27,137 nucleotides of DNA from Armatimonadota bacterium (lineage in GTDB: Bacteria; Sysuimicrobiota; Sysuimicrobiia; Sysuimicrobiales; Humicultoraceae), in NCBI GenBank assembly GCA_052386995.1, contig JBQTJP010000035.1, positions 1 through 27,137 of the forward strand, read 5' to 3'. Position 1 is the stretch's first letter; every line of letters starts with the position of its first letter. A program made the translations under genes and the position numbers. Below, piece by piece: positions 9,743-26,832 of this stretch. Under the pieces are notes generated by a model that was not told where the DNA came from, did not search any database, and saw only the letters and a list, made by a program, of their open reading frames with translations.

Positions 9743-10639
9743 CTACGCATCCCGCCCTCCCTCGTCGCGCGCCAGCACCAGCGTCGGACTCTGGACGACC
9801 GTGACCTCGCTGTCCGCGCCGGTCCCCCGATAAGTGACCAGCGCGACGTAACGATCGATCATCTTGTCGGCGGGATGTTCCGTCTCCACTAATACCCCAA
9901 TCCCCACTACTTCAGCCCGGAACTCCCGCATGAGGTCGTAGACCCCTCGCGCGGTCCCGCCGCCGCGGAGGAAGTCGTCAATGAACAGGACCCGCGCCCC
10001 GGCAGCAATCGCCCGCAGCGGCAGCGTCATCGACTGGACCAGCCGGGAAGAGCCCGACACATAGTTGACACTGACCGAGGGCCCTTCGATGACTCCCGCG
10101 CCGCGACGCACGGTCACGAGCGGGACATTGAACGCGCGTGCCGTCATCAACGCGACCGGAATGCCTTTGACCTCCATGGTCAGGACGACGTCCGGGCGGG
10201 CCTCGTGAAAAAGCGTTGCGAAGACTTCTCCGATCGCGGCGGCCGTCTGGGGAGTAGAGATCAGGTCGGTCGTGTGGAGGAACCCGCCGGCCAGCACCCG
10301 CCCCGGATCGCTGAGCTTCACGCGGATCTCGTCCACGAGCGCGCGGATCTGGCCGGGCGTGCGATGGGGGAGGTACCGCACGCCGCCGGCGGCGCCGGTG
10401 ACGGTCTCGACGCGGCCGAGGCCGAACCGTTCACTGGCGCGCCGCAGGAAGGCCAGATCTTCGCTGACCGTCGACTTCGCAGCGCCGAGCAGAGCGGTGA
10501 ACGCCGAGAGCGGGATCAAGCGGTGCGGCTCGGTCCACAGGCGGTGGGCAATGACGACCATGCGCTCGCCACGGCGGAGGCGCAGGCGGGGGCCGGCGTC
10601 CCCGGCCCCGGCGCGTTCCTCGGCGCGGACCCTGCGCAC
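9743..10639 (-). CDS. purR: Bacillus-type pur operon repressor (wHTH + PRTase domain)
   Basis: RRGERMV..PHRLIPL..AKSTVSEDL, ETVTGAAGGVRY, KGIP, EGPSVSVNYVSGSS, PRPP loop FIDDFLRGGGT. Start uncertain. Confidence 0.93.
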   Translation of the reverse strand: MRRVRAEERAGAGDAGPRLRLRRGERMVVIAHRLWTEPHRLIPLSAFTALLGAAKSTVSEDLAFLRRASERFGLGRVETVTGAAGGVRYLPHRTPGQIRALVDEIRVKLSDPGRVLAGGFLHTTDLISTPQTAAAIGEVFATLFHEARPDVVLTMEVKGIPVALMTARAFNVPLVTVRRGAGVIEGPSVSVNYVSGSSRLVQSMTLPLRAIAAGARVLFIDDFLRGGGTARGVYDLMREFRAEVVGIGVLVETEHPADKMIDRYVALVTYRGTGADSEVTVVQSPTLVLARDEGGRDA

Positions 10640-10640
10640 G

Positions 10641-11405
10641 CTAGGCGCCCGGTCCGCTGTGCGGCTCCAGCGCCGCTCGGAGGATTTTCATGTTCTCCGG
10701 CCGCTCGGCGTCGATGTCGAGCGCGAGTTCAGGAGATTCGACGATCACGGCCTTGGCGCGGATACCCGTCACCTCGTGCACCCGCGCCTCCGCGTCGGCG
10801 ATCGACAGGGTGCCGGCAATAAGCCTGGTCGCGAGCGACCATCCGAAGAGCTGTGCCAGCAGCCACGGCTTCTTGCGTCCGGCCATGATCCGCTCGACGA
10901 GCGGCCTGACTTTCTCGATGATTCCCGGATCGAACAGCAGGACGCTCCCGCCGGTGAAGACGCCATCGGTCACACGCACGTACGTCTTGCGCGCGCCCGG
11001 GTACCGACGCTCGACCGCCGCCTCCGGCACGATCGCGTAATAGAGGCCCGCATCGCCGGAACACAATCCCAGAAAAGCCTCAATGGCCTCGGCTGTGATG
11101 AGCGGTAAATCCGAGGCGACCGCCAGCACGCGCGGCTCGCCCGAGAGGCGTGCGACAGCGGCCCCGATATTGTCGACGAGCGTGCCCTGCTCTGGGACGA
11201 TCTCGAAGGACGGATCGAGCAACGAGCCCAGCGGCCGCTCGGGTCCCACGACCACAATGCGACCCATCGAGCGCACGCCGCGCAGGGCGTCGGTGACCCG
11301 GACGACGAGCGGACGGCCGCCGAGGACGAGGAACGCCTTGCTGGGAAGATCGGGCGCCAGGTGCGGCTCGGGGCCGCCCCCGGCCAGCACGATCGCGGCC
11401 GGCAC
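10641..11405 (-). CDS. Nucleotidyltransferase (MobA-like NTP transferase) family protein
   Basis: AIVLAGG, SKAFLVLGGRPL, SDLPL, LDID. Start codon overlaps the ispE stop. Confidence 0.8.
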   Translation of the reverse strand: MPAAIVLAGGGPEPHLAPDLPSKAFLVLGGRPLVVRVTDALRGVRSMGRIVVVGPERPLGSLLDPSFEIVPEQGTLVDNIGAAVARLSGEPRVLAVASDLPLITAEAIEAFLGLCSGDAGLYYAIVPEAAVERRYPGARKTYVRVTDGVFTGGSVLLFDPGIIEKVRPLVERIMAGRKKPWLLAQLFGWSLATRLIAGTLSIADAEARVHEVTGIRAKAVIVESPELALDIDAERPENMKILRAALEPHSGPGA

Positions 11406-12271
11406 TACCGCTGCTCCGCGAACGTTCGCGTGACCAGAACGTCGAGATCTGTGATCGTGCCGAGGTCGTCCGCGACGCGCCGTGCGGCCGCTTCGTTTGC
11501 CATTAACCCGAACACGGTGGGACCGGTGCCGGTCATCGCAGCCCCGTAGGCCTCGCCTCCGAGGATGCGGGCCTTGACCTCGGCAACGACCGGATGCCGT
11601 CCGGCGATGAACTCCTCGAAGACGTTGCCGAGCAGCCGGCCAACCGCGGGCACGTCCCGGCGGCGCACCGCCTCCACGAGGCTAGGCACGTCGGGCCGCC
11701 GGGTGATGTCCAGGGGCTGGAGATGACGGTAGGCCCACTCGGTCAGCACCGACACGCGCGGCCGCGCGAGCACGACCCACGTCGTAGGCAGGGGGGGCAG
11801 TGGCTGTACCCGCTCGCCGCGGCCCCGGGCCACGGCCGACCCTCCGTCGAGGAAAAACGGCACGTCCGAACCCAGACGGGCCGCCAGCGCGTGCAGCTCG
11901 CGCCCGTCGAGCCGGAGCTTCCACATCTGCGCAAGGCCCATCAGCGTGATCGCGGCGTCAGCGCTTCCACCGCCCAGGCCCGCGGCGACGGGGATGCGCT
12001 TCTTGACCTCGATATCCACGGGGCGCGGCACGCTGTACTGCTCGCGCAGCAGCGTGGCCGCCCGATAGACGAGATTCGCCGCGCCCGAGGGAAGCGCTTC
12101 CCCATCGGTGGTGACGTTGATCCCCTCGCCGGCCTCACGCAGGGTGATCAGATCGTGCAGCGCAATGGTGTGGAGAACGGTCTCGACTTCATGGTACCCG
12201 TCCTCGCGTTTGTCCAGGACGTTGAGGGCAAGATTGACCTTCGCGTACGCGTTGAGATGCAGCTCTTTCAC
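11405..12271 (-). CDS. ispE: 4-diphosphocytidyl-2-C-methyl-D-erythritol kinase
   Basis: AYAKVNLAL, DGYHEVET, KRIPVAAGLGGGSADAA, LGSDVPFF, GRGE. GGAGG SD before GTG 12271. Confidence 0.95.
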   Translation of the reverse strand: MKELHLNAYAKVNLALNVLDKREDGYHEVETVLHTIALHDLITLREAGEGINVTTDGEALPSGAANLVYRAATLLREQYSVPRPVDIEVKKRIPVAAGLGGGSADAAITLMGLAQMWKLRLDGRELHALAARLGSDVPFFLDGGSAVARGRGERVQPLPPLPTTWVVLARPRVSVLTEWAYRHLQPLDITRRPDVPSLVEAVRRRDVPAVGRLLGNVFEEFIAGRHPVVAEVKARILGGEAYGAAMTGTGPTVFGLMANEAAARRVADDLGTITDLDVLVTRTFAEQR

Positions 12272-12383
12272 GAACGCCTCCAAGGGCTTGCGTGCGGCAG
12301 TGTACAGGTTAGGTGCGGCCGCATCGAAGTCCTCTCGCCGGCCCGCGTTGCGCCGCGTGACCGCTTGCGGGTAAGATATTGAC

Positions 12384-13718
12384 GTGAACGACCGCGAAAC
12401 GCACGGCATGTCGCCATCGGACGCCGGGGCCCAGCCGGTGCCCGAACATGCTCCGTCGGCCCCCCCGACCGCTTCCCTACCCCCGCCGGTCTATCCTCGA
12501 CGCCGGTGGTGGCTGGTGGTGGCCTGGGCGATCCCCGTGGTGGTGCTGTTCGCCGGCGGCCTGGCCCTCGGGCTCTATCTGTACACGCTGAGCCAGATCA
12601 CCGTGGGCACGGGCGAGGCGACGGCGCGCCGGCAGCGGAGCGAGGCGTTCGGCTGGCCCCTGCGGCTCGCCGACCGGGTCAACATTCTCATCATCGGCGT
12701 CGATGTCACGCTCGACAACCGGCGGCGGGTCCTCAACGTCGCCCGAGCCGACAGCCTGCTGCTCGTCTCCTTCGACCCCGAGCGCCGCCGGATCTCCGCC
12801 GTGTCCATCCCGCGTGACACGCGCGTCCAGATCCCCGGCTACGGCGAGACCAAGGTCAACGCCTCGTACGCTTACGGCGGCCCGCGCCTCACGATCAAGA
12901 CCGTCGAAAAGCTGCTCGGCGTGACCGTCGATCACTACGTCAAACTGGGAGCCGAGTCGTTTTCGCACATCATCGACGCCGTCGGCGGGATCGAGATCGA
13001 CGTCGAGAAGGACATGAAGTACACCGACACCTGGGCGGGATTCAGCGTCGACCTCAAGAAAGGCCGCCAGCATCTCGATGGCCAGCAGGCGACCGGGTAC
13101 ATCCGGTTCAGACACGACGCCACCGGGGACATCGGCCGCGTGGAGCGTCAGCATAAGGTGATGATGACGCTGGTCAGGCAGCTGCGCCAGCCGTCGACCA
13201 TCCTGGCCGGACCCCGGCTGCTGCGGGTCTTCGCCGAGAACACCGAGACCACGCTCACGCCGGCCGAGCTGGCCACGCTCGGCCTCTTCGCGCTGCGGAC
13301 GAAAGAGGCCCCTCTGCGGATCGAGACGCTGCCCGGGGGGTTTGCGCCGGAGTATTGGGATCCGGATACGCCAAGAGTGCGTGCGCTGGTCGCCGACATA
13401 ATCTACGGCGTATCGCGGGACGAGCTCACGAAGACCGTCGTCGACGTTCAGAATGCCAGCGGCTCACCGGCCCTCGGCCGGCGCATCGCCGAGCGGATGA
13501 CCGCCCTCGGTTTCCGTACGGTGAAGGTCAGGACAGCGGCTCCAACGGACCGGACGGTGATCATCGATCGCAGCGCGAACCCGCGCACGGCCCGCATGGT
13601 CGCCGCGGCTCTGGGCAAGGCGAAGATCCGCCGCGAGCCGGGGTCCGTGGAATCCATCACGGTCGTCGTGGGTCGCGACGCGGCCCGCCCACCGGCCACG
13701 TCCCGCAACGGCTTGTAG
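12384..13718 (+). CDS. LCP (LytR-CpsA-Psr) family protein with LytR C-terminal domain
   Basis: Single TM, NILIIGVD, RADS, SIPRDT, KVNASY, YIRFRHD, GDIGRVERQ, C-terminal VQNASG..VVVGRD. Start 12384 or 12408. Confidence 0.93.
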   Translation: MNDRETHGMSPSDAGAQPVPEHAPSAPPTASLPPPVYPRRRWWLVVAWAIPVVVLFAGGLALGLYLYTLSQITVGTGEATARRQRSEAFGWPLRLADRVNILIIGVDVTLDNRRRVLNVARADSLLLVSFDPERRRISAVSIPRDTRVQIPGYGETKVNASYAYGGPRLTIKTVEKLLGVTVDHYVKLGAESFSHIIDAVGGIEIDVEKDMKYTDTWAGFSVDLKKGRQHLDGQQATGYIRFRHDATGDIGRVERQHKVMMTLVRQLRQPSTILAGPRLLRVFAENTETTLTPAELATLGLFALRTKEAPLRIETLPGGFAPEYWDPDTPRVRALVADIIYGVSRDELTKTVVDVQNASGSPALGRRIAERMTALGFRTVKVRTAAPTDRTVIIDRSANPRTARMVAAALGKAKIRREPGSVESITVVVGRDAARPPATSRNGL

Positions 13719-13731
13719 GAGCGTTGGCCCC

Positions 13732-13823
13732 AAGAAGATCAGCGGTCGCCGGCTACGGAGTTAGGCCGGGTTGCTCCCGAAGGAGTACCTCCTCCCACCT
13801 CGTATAGCCGACAAACCGCTGAC
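13732..13823 (-). ncRNA. Candidate small RNA (long irregular hairpin with UUCG loop)
   Basis: Own promoter-like element, ~19-bp basal stem with G-U pairs only on the minus strand, C(UUCG)G cap, UCUUCUU tail. Not recognised as a known family. Confidence 0.6.
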
Positions 13824-13830
13824 GAAATGC

Positions 13831-13859
13831 ACGTTAACATCCGACCGCGAAAGCGTCAA
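13831..13859 (-). promoter_or_regulatory. Candidate sigma70 promoter of the putative sRNA
   Basis: TTGACG (13859-13854), 17-nt spacer ending in TGn, TAACGT (13836-13831). Predicted +1 at about 13823. Confidence 0.65.
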
Positions 13860-15109
13860 TCCGAAACGCTCGTTCCCCTCCTGTGGATAATATGAACAGC
13901 CGCGGGTTCTTGACGGCGCACGAGGCGCGCGAGACGCGCGATCCCTTCGCGAATCTCCTCGACTGACGGATAGGAAAAATTCAATCGCATCGTGTTGCGC
14001 CCGCTTCCATCGGCGTGGAAGGGCTGACCGGGCACATACATGATCCCCTCCTCCACCGCCTGACGGAGCATTGTGCCGCAATCCACGCCTTCGGGAAGAC
14101 GCACCCAGAGGAATAGACCGCCTTCGGGTCGAGTCCAGGTCACGCCGCCGGGCATCTCGGCTTTCAGCGCCTCCAGCATGACATCGCGTTTGCGGCGATA
14201 GAGATCGATGGTGGCCGGCAATCGCCGGAGCAGATCGCCCCGGCGCAACAGCCCCGCGGTGATCGCCTGTGTGAAGGATGGACTGCACAGATCCATCGCC
14301 TGCTTCAGCGTGACACATTGCGCGATCACGGGCTCCGGTCCGGCGATCCAGCCGATGCGCAGCCCTGGGGCCATGGTCTTGCTGAATGTCGACAGGTAGA
14401 TCGTCCTGCCGCTCGGGTCGAGCGCGAGGATTGGGGGCGGTGCGGTCCCGGAGAATCGCATCTCGCGATATGGATTGTCTTCGACGATCAGACACTCCGC
14501 GTCGGCGGCGAGGGTCAGCAGGCGCTCGCGCCGCTCGCGTGTCCAGGTGACGCCGGAGGGGTTCTGAAAATCCGGGACCGCGTAGATGAACTTCGGTCGC
14601 CTGCCTTCCCGCTTCAACCGGCGGAGGACATCGGCGAGCCGGTCGACGTCCATTCCCTCATCGTCCTGGGGCACGCCGGTCATCTCGGCCCCGTAGGCCC
14701 GAAACACCTGGAGTCCACCCAGATACGAAGGAAGTTCCACGACAACCACGTCGCCTGGATCGAGGAAGGCCTTCCCGATGACGTCCAGGGCCTGCTGCGA
14801 ACTCGTCGTGACGAGGATGCCCTCCCTGCCGACCGTGATGCCGTCCTTGGCCATCCACCGGATCAGCTCGTCCCGCAGGACGGGATCGCCCTCGGTGGGG
14901 CCGTACTGAAGGGCGAGAGCCGCGCCGCTCGCCAGGACGTCGCGGGTCACTTCCTGGAGCTCGGCCACCGGGAAGGTGGCGGGGTCAGGGAATCCACCGG
15001 CGAACGAGATGAGGCCCTTGCCGGCCTGCGAGACCTTGAGGAGTTCGCGGATCAGTGACCGTTCGGCTCCCCGGGCGTGCCTGGCGTAGAACGCCTGATA
15101 GTCAAGCAT
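13856..15109 (-). CDS. PLP-dependent class I/II aminotransferase (LysN/ARO8/MocR-like, no HTH)
   Basis: ISFAGGFPDP, ALQYGPTEG, SQQALD, PDFQNPSG, EDNPY, STFSKTMAPGLRIGW, MRLNFS. GGGAGG SD. Confidence 0.93.
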   Translation of the reverse strand: MLDYQAFYARHARGAERSLIRELLKVSQAGKGLISFAGGFPDPATFPVAELQEVTRDVLASGAALALQYGPTEGDPVLRDELIRWMAKDGITVGREGILVTTSSQQALDVIGKAFLDPGDVVVVELPSYLGGLQVFRAYGAEMTGVPQDDEGMDVDRLADVLRRLKREGRRPKFIYAVPDFQNPSGVTWTRERRERLLTLAADAECLIVEDNPYREMRFSGTAPPPILALDPSGRTIYLSTFSKTMAPGLRIGWIAGPEPVIAQCVTLKQAMDLCSPSFTQAITAGLLRRGDLLRRLPATIDLYRRKRDVMLEALKAEMPGGVTWTRPEGGLFLWVRLPEGVDCGTMLRQAVEEGIMYVPGQPFHADGSGRNTMRLNFSYPSVEEIREGIARLARLVRRQEPAAVHIIHRRGTSVSD

Positions 15110-15169
15110 GCGTCCCTCCCCGGAGTCTTCCTCGGCGGGTTATCGCCGACGTGTTTCCCCTCGCACAGC

Positions 15170-16027
15170 TCATTCCCTGTCGAACGCCAATGCAAGACGC
15201 GCAAACTCTTGTATAGAGAGAGTTTCCCCGCGCCGGCGCGGGTCAATCCCGGCCCGGGCGCACCGGGCCTCAACGGCCGCCGCCGGGAGGCGCCACGTGT
15301 CGATGCGCTGCAGTGCTGTGCGCAGCATCTTGCGCCTCTGCCCGAAGGCCGCCCGCGCCACGGCCATGAAGACCGGCATTTTGGGTCGCGGTAACGGAGG
15401 CTGCTCCCGAACTTCGAGCCGGACGATCGCGGATCGGACCTCTGGTGGCGGGAAGAAGGCCGTGCGCGGAACCCGGGCGACGATAGTCGGCGTCGCATAG
15501 GCCTGGACCGCCACCGACAGCAGACCAAACGTCTTGCCGCCGGGGAGCGCGGCGATGCGCGCGGCGACCTCGTCCTGGACCATGACGACGAGGCGCCGCC
15601 CGATACCGGCCTGCAACAGCCGGATCAGTATCGGAGATGCGATGGAGTACGGCAGGTTGGCAACGACCTTCGACGGCGGGAACGGCAGCGCCGCGGGATC
15701 CAGGCGCATTGCGTCGGCATGGACGATATCGACGCCGGGATAGGGCGCACACGCCGCCTGCAGCAGCGGAATGAAGCGCGCGTCCACCTCGACGGCCGCG
15801 ACGCGTGCGCCGGTGCGTGCGAGCGCGACGGTGAGGGTACCGATGCCGGCCCCGATCTCCAGGATACCGTCGCGTGCGTCGACCTGCGCCGCGTCGAGCA
15901 CCCGCTCGAGAACATGGCGGCTGATCAGGAAATGCTGCCCCCGCGAGGGCCGGAGGCGCAGCCCGAACGCCGAGAGCGCCGCGCGGACGCCGCCCGGCGT
16001 GGCAAGATCGAGTTCGGAGGATGCCAC
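15170..16027 (-). CDS. rsmA: 16S rRNA m6,2A dimethyltransferase KsgA
   Basis: GQHFL, LEIGAGIGTLT, VEVD, VVANLPY, MVQDEVA, FFPPPEVRS, FGQRRKML, RGETLS. Confidence 0.95.
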   Translation of the reverse strand: MASSELDLATPGGVRAALSAFGLRLRPSRGQHFLISRHVLERVLDAAQVDARDGILEIGAGIGTLTVALARTGARVAAVEVDARFIPLLQAACAPYPGVDIVHADAMRLDPAALPFPPSKVVANLPYSIASPILIRLLQAGIGRRLVVMVQDEVAARIAALPGGKTFGLLSVAVQAYATPTIVARVPRTAFFPPPEVRSAIVRLEVREQPPLPRPKMPVFMAVARAAFGQRRKMLRTALQRIDTWRLPAAAVEARCARAGIDPRRRGETLSIQEFARLALAFDRE

Positions 16028-16070
16028 GGCGTGGCTAGGACGCAGGCTTCTCTCTGCCGTGCGATCGCCT

Positions 16071-17090
16071 CTATGAGCGCCTGCGCGGAGGTGGCGTCGA
16101 CAGAATGTACACCCTCACCGGCCGGCGGCCAAATTTGTACGCTTCCCGAACGGTATCGTAGCAGAGATCGATCCGGTGTCCCTTGATCGCGCCGCCGGTG
16201 TCCCCGGCGATCGCCCGCCCGTAGCCTTCGACGAACACCACCGATCGCAGCGGAATGACCTTCGGGTCGACGGCGACGACACCGTAGCGCGCTTTGAGCC
16301 CGATCGCGGTGATGTCGTTCACGCCTTCGCCATGCCACGGTGCGTACGCCGTGGCCTCCATCTGCACGACTTCTTTGCCGGCGAACTCCCCGCGGTCCGC
16401 GAACATCCGGCGCGTACCGACCTGAACGACATGATCCTGCGGCGGCGCGGTGATGACCGGCGCAAGTTCCCGGCGATCGACGACTTCGCCGTCGGCGGTC
16501 GTCACCGACGTGGCGTAGGTTCGGACACCCAGGCGGCCGCGCTGGACGACGCGGGGCACACCGCTCGGCAACGTCACCGTCGGCTGGATGATGCGCGCGA
16601 ACGGTACGGGCTCGGTCTTCTCGATGATGCGCGTCTCGATGCGGACGATTCGCACAATGTCCCCAGACACGAGCGGCGTTGCCGCCGAAGGATAGACGCG
16701 GTCACGCGGCCGGACCGCGAGCCCATGTGCCGCATCGCCGATGAGCTCGTCGACGGTCGCGGCCGCCGTCATCACCACGCGCCTGCTCCCATCCACCATG
16801 ACGAGCACGGGAAACGCACGACGTATCTCGATGATCGTGCGAGGCGCCAGGCGCACGCCTGCCGCCGGAATCAGACGATCGTGGGGACCCACGGTGATTG
16901 CGGCTTCTCTAAGAACGTCACGTACGGTCGCGCCATAGGTCAAGCGGCGCTGCTTGACGACGCGGTGAGATTCGTCCTCGATGCGGAATATGACAGCGTT
17001 GGGGAGATGCGCGAGGACGGCGGGGCTGATGGCCGAGATCAGGGCTCCAAGCACGTACACACCCAGCCACCTTCGCATGGGAAAGGGCAT
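16071..17090 (-). CDS. YabE/RpfB-like cell wall protein (DUF348 repeats, G5, 3D domain)
   Basis: N-terminal signal/TM, two ubiquitin-like DUF348 repeats, G5, 3D domain (MEATAY, VAVDPKVIPL, AGDTGGAIKGHRIDL). AGGAGGTGA SD before ATG 17090. Confidence 0.9.
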   Translation of the reverse strand: MPFPMRRWLGVYVLGALISAISPAVLAHLPNAVIFRIEDESHRVVKQRRLTYGATVRDVLREAAITVGPHDRLIPAAGVRLAPRTIIEIRRAFPVLVMVDGSRRVVMTAAATVDELIGDAAHGLAVRPRDRVYPSAATPLVSGDIVRIVRIETRIIEKTEPVPFARIIQPTVTLPSGVPRVVQRGRLGVRTYATSVTTADGEVVDRRELAPVITAPPQDHVVQVGTRRMFADRGEFAGKEVVQMEATAYAPWHGEGVNDITAIGLKARYGVVAVDPKVIPLRSVVFVEGYGRAIAGDTGGAIKGHRIDLCYDTVREAYKFGRRPVRVYILSTPPPRRRS

Positions 17091-17248
17091 CCCGTCACCT
17101 CCTGTCCGTCGGAAGATCACGGCCGTGCGAACACGCCGGGCGTCATGGCGAGGAAACGGTGAGCGGGAAGGGCGACCCTCCGGCGCAGAGCCGGCCCTTT
17201 GAGCACTTTGGGGGCGGAACCGTTCTACGTCCTAATGGAAACATACCC

Positions 17249-25452: not shown

Positions 25453-25731
25453 CTAGGACGGCGCCCCGGACTCCGGCGGCAGTGGGCCGTACGGACGGAT
25501 GGCGATGATCCCGTGTTTGAAGAGAAGTTCCTGCGTTCCGTTGTTTTCGATCAGGAGGCTGTAGGTGCCGAAATCCTTGACGATCGCCGACGGGATCTCG
25601 TACCCATCGCGGCAGCGGATGTACACGGGCGTGGCAGCGCCGACGAGTCTGCGGTAGAAGGCATCTTCGAGCGACGGCCGCGGCGGGGCCTTCGTCCCTG
25701 TCGGCCCGTCCGTTCGGATCTCTTCGCGCAT
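25453..25731 (-). CDS. Possible in-frame internal product: stand-alone 92-aa Hfq-like protein
   Basis: Internal GGAGGTG (25746-25740) lies 5 nt before GTG 25734 and 8 nt before ATG 25731, just ahead of the Hfq domain. Confidence 0.55.
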
Positions 25732-26676
25732 CACGGTTGCACCTCCCTGACGCTCCGGTCGAATCTCACTCATGTCGTGAATGACGTCCTCAGCGGCCGC
25801 GCCCACCGCATGGGCTTGCCAGGACTCGCCCCGCAGTGGCTCGTGCCCGGGACTTCTTGACGGTTCTTCCGTCGCCGGAGGCTCGTCCTGCGCGGCACCC
25901 GTGGGCGGAGCTTCCTCCGGGCTCGCCGGGGACCCAGCGCCCGCCTCGGCGCGGATGAGCCGCTCATAGTGCGCGCGCAAACCTTCAAACTGCTGGCGGC
26001 GATCCAACCGCACCTTGCCTGCACCTTCAATCCGGCGCGGCGGCTTTTGCGCGGCATCCATGACCGCGCCGACGACCGCTTCGGCCTCACTGGACGTCAC
26101 CGCCTCCGCACCCACGTGCAGCAGGCTCGTCCGTTCCGAAGTCAGGGTGAGGGCGGCCAGCGCCACGGCAGCGCCGGCGAATTGCATCACCGACAGGGCC
26201 TCCAGCGACGGCCGGTAGCCGCTCCGTTCGATGAGCGGACGCAGCGCCTCGACGGCCGCCAGGGCCACGGTGCGCAGGCGTTGCGACTGTCCGGGCGGCG
26301 CCTGCGCCGTCCCGGTCAAGGTCTTCTGGGCGCCTTCGCGCTCATACCGCAGCTCGACGATGACGTTGGTCATCGTCTCCGTCATCGTTTCTTCGAGCCG
26401 GACGAGCTGAGAGGCCGGGATGCGCTCGGTGTCGGGCGTAGGCTGCAGGTGGGCGATCTGAACGCGCCAGCCATCAACGGGCAGGTTGAACTGACTCATC
26501 AGCGCGGACGTAATGGCACGCCTGATCCCGCCGTCATCGCGCGCCGACTCGGTCGTGACATAGATGCGCTCGATGTCGCCGGCCTCATTCGCCACGACGC
26601 GCACCGCCGCGACGGCATCGAGCCGTTCGAGGAAGGCTTCGATCTCTTCTGCGAAAACTTCCCGGGGCACCGGCAT
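25453..26676 (-). CDS. Hypothetical protein with a C-terminal Hfq (Sm-like) domain
   Basis: C-terminal [61 protein letters not shown] aligns by eye with the Hfq helix-Sm1-Sm2 ([YF]KH) core. GGAG before ATG 26676. Confidence 0.8.
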
Positions 26677-26832
26677 TGCTCCGAGTGGGATGATTGAATG
26701 AGCCCCTCTTCTGCGGCCCGCGGAAGGTCTCCTTCCCTTACACATGACTGGTGACGCGATTCATTCAGCACGCTAATCTACTTGTGATGCGCGGGACCAC
26801 GCGCAGGTTCGGCTCCCGAAAGGAGACGGCCA

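Follow-up and report, generated by a model that had tools for sequence, protein, structure and literature searches.

Near the middle of contig JBQTJP010000035.1 (assembly GCA_052386995.1, Armatimonadota bacterium, GTDB phylum Sysuimicrobiota, family Humicultoraceae), which was analysed over positions 1 to 27,137 and is called the window below, an aminotransferase gene and an LCP gene converge on a short stretch, and the question is what this stretch encodes. An initial annotation, made from the letters alone, had proposed that positions 13,732 to 13,859 hold a promoter and a structured RNA of about 92 nt on the minus strand. After comparison with homologous loci across the phylum, a real, stand-alone gene for a structured RNA can be proposed here with high confidence; whether the RNA serves as a platform for protein binding is an even question. 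It belongs to a general kind of RNA that is known, within which it appears to form a new family, and is a candidate for inclusion in Rfam.

A predicted minus-strand transcription unit

The elements named in the initial annotation (promoter, stem with a bulged U, purine-rich middle, C(UUCG)G and U-rich tail) are all present in the minus strand. The promoter consists of TTGACG (13859-13854), a 17-nt spacer that ends in TGT, and TAACGT (13836-13831); seven bases later, at 13823, begins GUCAGCGG. The 92 nt from 13823 to 13732 fold at -48.9 kcal/mol compared with a shuffle mean of -31.7 (z -4.57), a value that none of 200 shuffles equals. From base to tip the fold has a 19-bp stem interrupted by a single bulged U, then an irregular middle rich in purines and a C(UUCG)G cap; CUUCUU forms the tail. 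The plus strand folds less well (-38.0 kcal/mol, z -2.96), and this difference, together with G.U pairs such as G30.U104, which is kept in 88 of 90 alignment rows, speaks for the minus strand as the RNA sense. The RNA is predicted to start within 1-2 nt around 13823 and to end inside the U-rich tail. The parts of the unit, all on the minus strand and in the order of reading, are the following:

13863..13876, minus: palindrome GGAACGAGCGTTTC with a GAAC-N4-GTTY core, 3 nt upstream of the -35 hexamer and still within the aminotransferase gene, at its 3' end
13854..13859, minus: -35 hexamer TTGACG, which contains the aminotransferase stop codon TGA (13856-13858)
13831..13839, minus: extended -10 element, TGT and TAACGT, read from the sequence
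13732..13823, minus: the RNA, a 92-nt rod, from the fold and a covariance-model match at 13730-13823 (82.3 bits)
13816..13823, minus: 5' half of the outer helix P1, GUCAGCGG, which pairs with 13738-13745; seven of the eight outer pairs have two-sided changes
13787..13801, minus: 5' strand of the core, GAGGUGGGAGGAGGU, with helix P2 and its invariant G.U, then the loop A-G-(N)-G-A
13773..13786, minus: apical hairpin A-CUCC-UUCG-GGAG-C, replaceable, closed by A.C or G.U
13758..13772, minus: 3' strand of the core, AACCCGGCCUAACUC, with near-invariant letters by column counts
13738..13745, minus: 3' half of P1, CCGCUGAU, from the fold and the pair counts
13732..13737, minus: U-rich tail CUUCUU, which with P1 forms an end like that of an intrinsic terminator and was missed by a simple terminator scan

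Taken alone, the sequence of the window is suggestive of an RNA gene but not conclusive.

Conservation across the phylum

A BLAST search with a 136-nt region as query over 61 genomes (G000 and 60 relatives) gave matches in 43 of them, among these 31 of the 33 genomes of the window's own family and all 8 of another family, and the best-conserved stretch in the matches was the hairpin core. The exact core pattern, searched in one genome per prokaryote species, was found at 39 loci, all of them in metagenome-assembled genomes. These genomes are titled Candidatus Sysuimicrobiota or Sysuimicrobium, Fervidifonticultor, Tepidifontimicrobium, Geohabitans and Thermofontivivens, with further titles being Armatimonadetes bacterium CSP1-3, Armatimonadota bacterium, Candidatus Nitrosymbiomonas sp. 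and plain 'bacterium'. The available part of PMC11604079 places Sysuimicrobium, Tepidifontimicrobium, Geohabitans and Fervidifonticultor in the phylum CSP1-3, which is the same as Sysuimicrobiota, and does not name Thermofontivivens; it describes an uncultured phylum that is widespread in soils, aquifers and hot springs, and an rRNA-depleted metatranscriptome from a chemoautotrophic enrichment with Geohabitans tengchongensis, Fervidifonticultor tertius and Tepidifontimicrobium thermophilum. Metagenome-assembled genomes bearing these three species names carry the RNA (loci L078/L091, L061 and L070).

The covariance model R1, built from a MAFFT alignment of 46 copies (A1), matches in 84 of 94 genomes of the phylum and in 27 of 31 genera, with one to three copies per genome, and some genomes hold diverged paralogues. 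Where completeness is at least 90% and contamination no higher than 5%, 52 of 54 genomes carry a match; the RNA is thus conserved like the housekeeping RNAs of the signal recognition particle (SRP) and 6S type, yet matches neither. A looser pattern found 56 metagenome stretches, 45 of which match R1 at 48 bits or more. When five genomes without an R1 hit were searched again, one weak match of 29.8 bits appeared. Three rows of A1, L009 (from G001) and L037 and L052 (both from G010), come from two unpublished genomes and feed partly into R1; the later alignment A3 omits these rows, though it was made with R1, and the genome counts include G001 and G010, with no conclusion hinging on them.

The promoter is conserved together with the RNA. 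Of 91 copies, 84 have the layout TTGNNN-N16-18-TANNNN-N5-9 immediately 5' of the outer helix's first base, 64 of these 84 with a TGn extension, and 72 of the 91 have at least four U within the last 8 nt. Spacer and discriminator vary freely among the copies, which is expected of a promoter and not of an RNA. Five copies from one genus of family f4 (L106, L107, L112, L113 and L166) have neither the usual promoter nor the palindrome and have a common upstream sequence, GACGGTGGAAAGCCAG...GCGAGCGCCTCCCGA, which may be a different promoter or part of a longer transcript.

In its own genome the RNA gave one full match, the other 8 being of 14-21 nt with E values of 0.8-5, and it is thus single-copy there; a genome-wide copy count was one of the checks named in the initial annotation. 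A REP/MITE-like repeat or mobile element was rejected on the grounds of that one full copy and of the one to three copies per genome found phylum-wide. A degenerate pattern for the RNA had no matches in viral contigs.

Covariation and an invariant core

Compensatory pairs were already visible when RNAalifold was applied to A1. Alignment A3, with 92 model-aligned matches and 90 distinct rows, was used to count changes over a structure of 25 pairs: 93.4% of its cells pair, compared with 26-46% when the partners are slid by 1-3 columns, two-sided changes occur at 18 of the 25 pairs (258 cells), and none of 500 shuffles attains the observed pairing, double-change or covariation values. Covariation among homologues, which the initial annotation had named as a check, was therefore found on phylum-wide copies. 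Being fitted to the structure, A3 favours the model, and it also includes one reverse-strand match among its 92 rows; because of the fitting the count was repeated on A1, which was not fitted in this way. There, 95.9% of cells are paired as against 26-48% with slid partners, and the 51 double-change cells are attained in none of 500 shuffles, while the number of pairs with double changes, 6, is not above that of the shuffles (309 of 500). Folded singly, 46 of 47 copies form the same long hairpin and 39 also form the same core pairing.

The decisive changes in the core come from the more divergent families. In helix P2 the pairs 29/105, 31/103 and 32/102 covary; pair 31/103 is G-C in 74 rows and A-U in 16, pair 29/105 is U-A in 84 rows and C-G in 6, and pair 26/108 is A-U in 72 rows and G-C in 13. 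Between such helices lie nucleotides that hardly change. The same letter is found in at least 90 of 91 copies at G27, G30, G32, A33, G34, G36 and G39 on the 5' side and at C96, C97, C99, G100, G101, C102, U104, A106 and C107 on the 3' side, and A37 is retained in 88 of 91. This invariant or near-invariant set of about 17 core nucleotides makes up a G.U wobble, a purine.A mismatch, an internal loop of A-G-(N)-G-A opposite C-C-G-G and a bulged A, so that the invariant positions are those of loop, wobble and mismatch between covarying helices. The apex varies between UUCG, GAAA, GCAA and GGAA, and one family has an insertion of about 30 nt there. The position that closes the apex fits a wobble geometry, being A.C in 32, G.U in 11 and A.U in 2 of 46 rows.

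Two resemblances to known motifs were followed up. The 11-nt receptor of GAAA tetraloops, CCUAAG/UAUGG, contains a U.A reverse-Hoogsteen pair and an AA platform; the look-alike CCUAAC / GAUGG in the RNA was rejected, as covariation backs Watson-Crick pairs in another register and the position that should be A holds G in 44 of 91 copies. A mimic of the Shine-Dalgarno sequence or its complement was also rejected, the GGAGG run not being conserved. The 3' strand in the window may resemble the 500 region of 16S rRNA, a likeness that would hold only for the variable part found in this genus.

Several observations weigh against the gene and are set against the evidence given so far. A simple consensus scan of positions 12000-16000 found no promoter-like and no terminator-like site, TAACGT agrees with TATAAT at three of six positions, and the tail has four U in six; because of this, the case for a promoter and a terminator rests on conservation and not on consensus strength. 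Seven copies are without the promoter layout, five of them from the f4 genus with a common different upstream sequence, and the RNA was not found on re-search in three f4 genomes that are 89-96% complete. The transcript, its ends and its stability are predictions from sequence. The promoter layout in 84 of 91 copies, the covariation and the variety of neighbourhoods described below nevertheless bear out the earlier proposal of a stand-alone structured RNA with its own promoter.

Comparison with known RNAs

The scan of the whole window against the covariance models of Rfam 15 found no family at the gathering score. A relaxed scan of 13600-14000, with E values up to 10, returned only istR in the end of the aminotransferase coding sequence, a noise match (12.4 bits where the gathering score is 45, E 5.6). 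Among 18 homologous loci the only Rfam matches were cold-seep-1 at 17.5-20.3 bits (gathering score 125.8) and CC3664 at 18.6 bits (gathering score 60). The view that the RNA is not SRP RNA, 6S RNA, tRNA or a known riboswitch was thus upheld by the absence of any Rfam match, and no description of it was found in Rfam or in the literature searched on CSP1-3 noncoding RNA and Armatimonadetes RNA motifs.

Two known RNAs of similar build are encoded elsewhere in the genome. Its SRP RNA, of the canonical large type, lies on contig C30 (67.6 bits with the small model, 177 with the large one), and the locus has no match to RF00169 or RF01854. The 4.5S SRP RNA (RF00169), which serves as a docking site for proteins, is alike in being a rod of about 100 nt that is closed by its own ends, has invariant internal loops below a tetraloop apex and is near-universal in its lineage. 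It differs in its loop sequences, the apex of the new RNA is not limited to GNRA, and no match was obtained even at E 10. The genome's 6S RNA is on contig C160 (53.1 bits), with no RF00013 match at the locus. Like the new RNA, 6S RNA (RF00013) is stand-alone and mostly double-stranded, with conserved irregularities and paralogues in some genomes; the new RNA, however, is half as long and has no large central bubble.

Bacterial Y RNAs, the partners of Rsr (Ro), have ends that pair into a conserved bulged helix which is the protein site; they are induced by UV in Deinococcus, and their genes lie beside rsr. The new RNA shares the helix of paired ends, and UV induction would parallel the LexA-type operator described below. 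In contrast to Y RNA genes, no rsr neighbour was seen in the contexts scanned, among which no search was aimed at TROVE-domain genes. IstR-2 of E. coli is a small RNA under the control of LexA, and the two have in common a small RNA gene with a palindrome like a LexA box at its promoter. They differ in that no toxin gene adjoins the new RNA, which is also far more structured and conserved.

Neighbourhoods and the question of a cis role

The flanking genes are convergent, as the initial annotation had said, and their positions in the window are:

13856..15109, minus: class I/II aminotransferase gene, the upstream neighbour (PF00155, E 1e-40)
12384..13718, plus: LCP gene with LytR_cpsA_psr and LytR_C domains, the convergent neighbour (PF03816, E 3.8e-49), which ends 14 nt from the end of the RNA

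The earlier description has to be corrected in that the aminotransferase gene is on the same strand as the RNA and upstream of it, with its TGA (13858-13856) inside the -35 hexamer. Across the phylum the RNA is found in at least six different neighbourhoods, and the own promoter is retained by the RNA across all these contexts. The arrangements are as follows:

Family f1: aminotransferase -> RNA <- LCP; aminotransferase at 29 of 29 and LCP at 28 of 29 relatives' loci, the remaining locus being cut by the contig end
Loci of named genomes: aminotransferase present at 26 of 39, the other 13 being other contexts
Second copies in three f1 genomes: ctaA-ctaB fusion -> RNA; 3 loci
Family f2, main copies: RNA -> nadE; 7 of 7
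Family f2, main copies: GAF kinase and REC-ANTAR regulator upstream; 5 of 7
Family f2, second copies: adjoining a LonC-type protease; 4 of 5
Family f4: adjoining M20 peptidase, alaDH, tilS or ligD; mixed
Family f5: divergent flavoprotein gene, RNA -> gcpE/ispG; 7 of 7, an eighth locus being cut
Family f7: metallo-beta-lactamase-fold gene -> RNA <- thyX; 1 locus

These neighbourhoods bear on the best-surviving alternative, in which the RNA would be a cis-acting leader or attenuator: the rod would be a sensor, the closing helix a terminator, and a ligand or protein would set the read-through into nadE, ispG or tilS. We regard this as improbable for the RNA as a whole. It draws on the same-strand gene that follows in f2 (nadE, 7 of 7), in f5 (gcpE/ispG, 7 of 7) and in two f4 loci (tilS), on the GAF histidine kinase and REC-ANTAR RNA-binding regulator that lie directly upstream on the same strand at five of seven f2 loci, and on the conserved internal loop, which is about the size of a small aptamer. 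In f1, however, the LCP gene is convergent at 28 of 29 loci and no gene lies downstream, yet the RNA is equally conserved, and f4 copies that converge with an M20 peptidase gene are likewise conserved without a downstream gene. The genes that do follow differ among the families, and at five f5 loci (within L041-L046) the sequence CCGGTG-N-TAT, about 20-30 nt past the RNA tail, resembles a separate extended -10 element and thereby an apparent promoter of ispG itself. If the start is the first base of the terminator helix, as predicted, no upstream sequence is left for an anti-terminator, and the expression platform of a riboswitch would be excluded for want of an upstream partner. A downstream same-strand gene, as a riboswitch or cis leader would need, is no general feature, being absent in the window and in 28 of 29 f1 loci, and the earlier statement that the RNA is not a leader in this genome stands, as nothing lies downstream on its strand and the LCP gene converges with it.

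The regulator found in f2 suggests a further candidate. Targets of ANTAR proteins have two tandem hairpins whose hexaloops have conserved A1 and G4. The RNA is a single rod with a tetraloop, and the apex insertions of f2 fold as one irregular hairpin; no hexaloop pair was seen and an ANTAR target was rejected, which also removes a point from the leader explanation. Adjacency of REC-ANTAR genes is confined to f2 (five of seven loci), and the one in the window's own genome is on another contig. At the f2 loci L126 and L128-L131 a GAF-HisKA_2 kinase and a REC-ANTAR regulator are directly upstream of the RNA and nadE, an architecture like that of PdtaS/PdtaR. In the window's own genome the GAF kinase/REC-ANTAR pair lies away from the RNA on contig C206 (L146), beside GNAT and metallo-beta-lactamase genes.

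A proposed platform for protein and its rivals

The reading that we prefer is that of a stand-alone, regulated and stable 92-nt RNA that binds a protein through its invariant internal loop, and taken as a whole it may equally well prove right or wrong. A self-contained transcription unit of about 145 bp would make a stable 92-nt rod. Its sigma-70-type promoter (TTGACG, 17 nt, extended -10) is kept at a fixed distance from the outer helix and would let transcription begin with the first base of that helix. The outer helix with the U-rich tail is shaped as the RNA's own terminator, so that a single helix would secure the RNA at its 5' and 3' ends alike. Compensatory changes hold the helices, and the apex can be freely replaced and seems to be dispensable. 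The invariant G.U, the purine.A mismatch, the A-G-(N)-G-A / C-C-G-G loop and the bulged A would then form a docking surface, most likely for a protein, and if they do, the RNA would therefore act in trans as the scaffold or decoy of a ribonucleoprotein, like 4.5S, 6S and Y RNAs, and not by base-pairing or as a leader. Diverged paralogues fit this class of scaffold or decoy RNA. No protein family is common to the neighbourhoods of different families among the contexts scanned, and in f2 and f5 the same-strand gene (nadE or ispG) that follows within about 25-110 nt of the RNA makes a cis role possible there; both points count against the trans-acting platform.

A small RNA, of the Hfq type or another, that base-pairs with mRNAs by way of a short conserved seed would share the own promoter and the terminator hairpin with its U tail (72 of 91 copies), as in classical trans-acting small RNAs, and a marginal Hfq-like domain of 23.6-27.7 bits is encoded in the genome. 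Such a role is also unlikely, slightly more so than a cis role: the RNA is almost wholly paired, and where invariant nucleotides are unpaired they occur singly or in twos (runs of 1-2 nt) at scattered places. A search of the own genome with the complement of the invariant 13-mer, not compared with gene starts, gave five sites with at most one mismatch; one is the RNA itself and none of the others is good. The purine run, which is the only long candidate for a seed, is not conserved, and its complement has no convincing sites in the genome. The earlier idea that the Hfq-domain protein is the partner of the RNA found no support, as the domain is marginal (23.6-27.7 bits, cut-off 27), is encoded 11.6 kb from the RNA and is linked to it by nothing. 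The Hfq-like (Sm) domain itself, the genome's only match of this kind, is found at 25489-25665 on the minus strand, within 25456-25800, at the C-terminal end of a 430-aa frame (open reading frame 25453-26745).

It is very unlikely that the stretch is only a long, possibly bidirectional terminator or a 3'-end stabiliser for the aminotransferase and LCP genes. The position is the expected one, since the element lies between convergent genes, begins right after the aminotransferase stop codon and has a U-rich tail at its end, and a G+C-rich helix followed by a U-rich run is what intrinsic terminators between convergent genes look like. Unlike these, the RNA combines a promoter of its own with an invariant internal loop, and it shows covariation and is conserved in neighbourhoods that are unrelated: the same sequence and promoter occur in at least five other neighbourhoods, and neither about 17 invariant loop nucleotides phylum-wide nor -35 and -10 elements at a fixed distance are expected of terminators. 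More than a plain terminator, as first suggested, is therefore the better description of a sequence that recurs with its promoter and invariant core in other settings.

The least probable of the explanations, a sponge for CsrA/RsmA through GGA motifs, a form of the protein sponge that the initial annotation had put forward and to which the GGGAGGAGG and GGGAGC of the window copy lend themselves, is disfavoured by the f4 copies, whose purine run GAGAGAGAGG has no GGA, by the helical and not hairpin-loop context of the GGA motifs, and by the absence of any CsrA match (PF02599) in the 93%-complete genome, with a control search positive in three named genomes.

A putative operator at the promoter

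The palindrome directly upstream of the -35 hexamer has the conserved form GGAAC-N4-GTTYC and is read as a putative operator to which a dimeric regulator would bind. In 84 of 91 copies a site that differs from CGAAC-N4-GTTCG by no more than three mismatches starts at -54 to -52; 49 of 91 have at most two mismatches and 10 have one, while the window's copy has three. By position, the background in the own genome amounts to 0.6% for up to three mismatches and 0.08% for up to two. The combination of upstream element and -35 occurs in the own genome at the RNA locus only, the element being found at three other places without this layout, and seven near-matches to a 13-mer variant of the element look unrelated.

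According to PMC3323433, GAAC-N4-GTTC is the LexA motif of Gram-positive bacteria. The promoter of the genome's own recA (gene at C23:25408-26196) reads TTGACA-AG-CGAACACGTGTTTG-GTATCGT, and in the promoter of its own lexA (gene at C209:15063-15254) CGAACACATGTTTG overlaps the -35 element. All 30 recA loci from four families (L182-L211) have C[G/A]AAC-N4-GTTTG between -35 and -10. In seven genomes (G011, G069, G038, G010, G013, G089 and G066) the recA match covers positions 1-198 of the RecA profile only (2-197 in one) within frames of 632-748 aa, which looks like an intein or other insertion. Two CGTACATATGTTCG boxes stand ahead of a second LexA_DNA_bind gene (C110:72520-72708), which may therefore be a paralogue that has an operator to itself.

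By the preferred reading, a dimeric DNA-binding protein at GGAAC-N4-GTTYC next to the -35 element would control transcription of the RNA, and if this were LexA, the RNA would be inducible by DNA damage. The palindrome shares its core with the recA and lexA boxes, which hints at SOS control and makes LexA the obvious candidate. LexA can be proposed as the regulator only tentatively, and we hold it to be the less likely case. The flanks of the palindrome are G/T...C as against C...G in the recA and lexA boxes; unlike the recA box, which sits between -35 and -10, the palindrome is upstream of -35; in f5 it is degenerate (CGCAC-N4-TTTCC); and in f1 its conservation could be due in part to the encoded C-terminus of the aminotransferase. 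The fullest form of the proposal, that the RNA is a subunit of a new, phylum-specific and near-universal ribonucleoprotein which is repressed by LexA and released by DNA damage, is improbable.

To our knowledge, almost nothing is known about regulation in CSP1-3/Sysuimicrobiota. The RNA could offer a handle on a putative new RNA-protein machine, and because the unit is tiny and self-contained, in-vitro transcripts can serve as bait with no need to culture the organism. The LexA-like putative operator gives a concrete hypothesis on when the RNA is made. If it were the RNA of a LexA-controlled ribonucleoprotein, it would be a structured SOS RNA that binds protein, and no SOS effector of this kind is known to have been described in bacteria.

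Gene order around the locus

From 9746 to 17231 on the minus strand, the window contains genes for a G5/3D protein (yabE-like), ksgA, the aminotransferase, the RNA, LCP (on the opposite strand), ispE, an NTP-transferase and purR. This order resembles the yabE-ksgA...ispE-purR region of Bacillus, with the RNA and the LCP gene at the place of yabG-veg-sspF in Bacillus.

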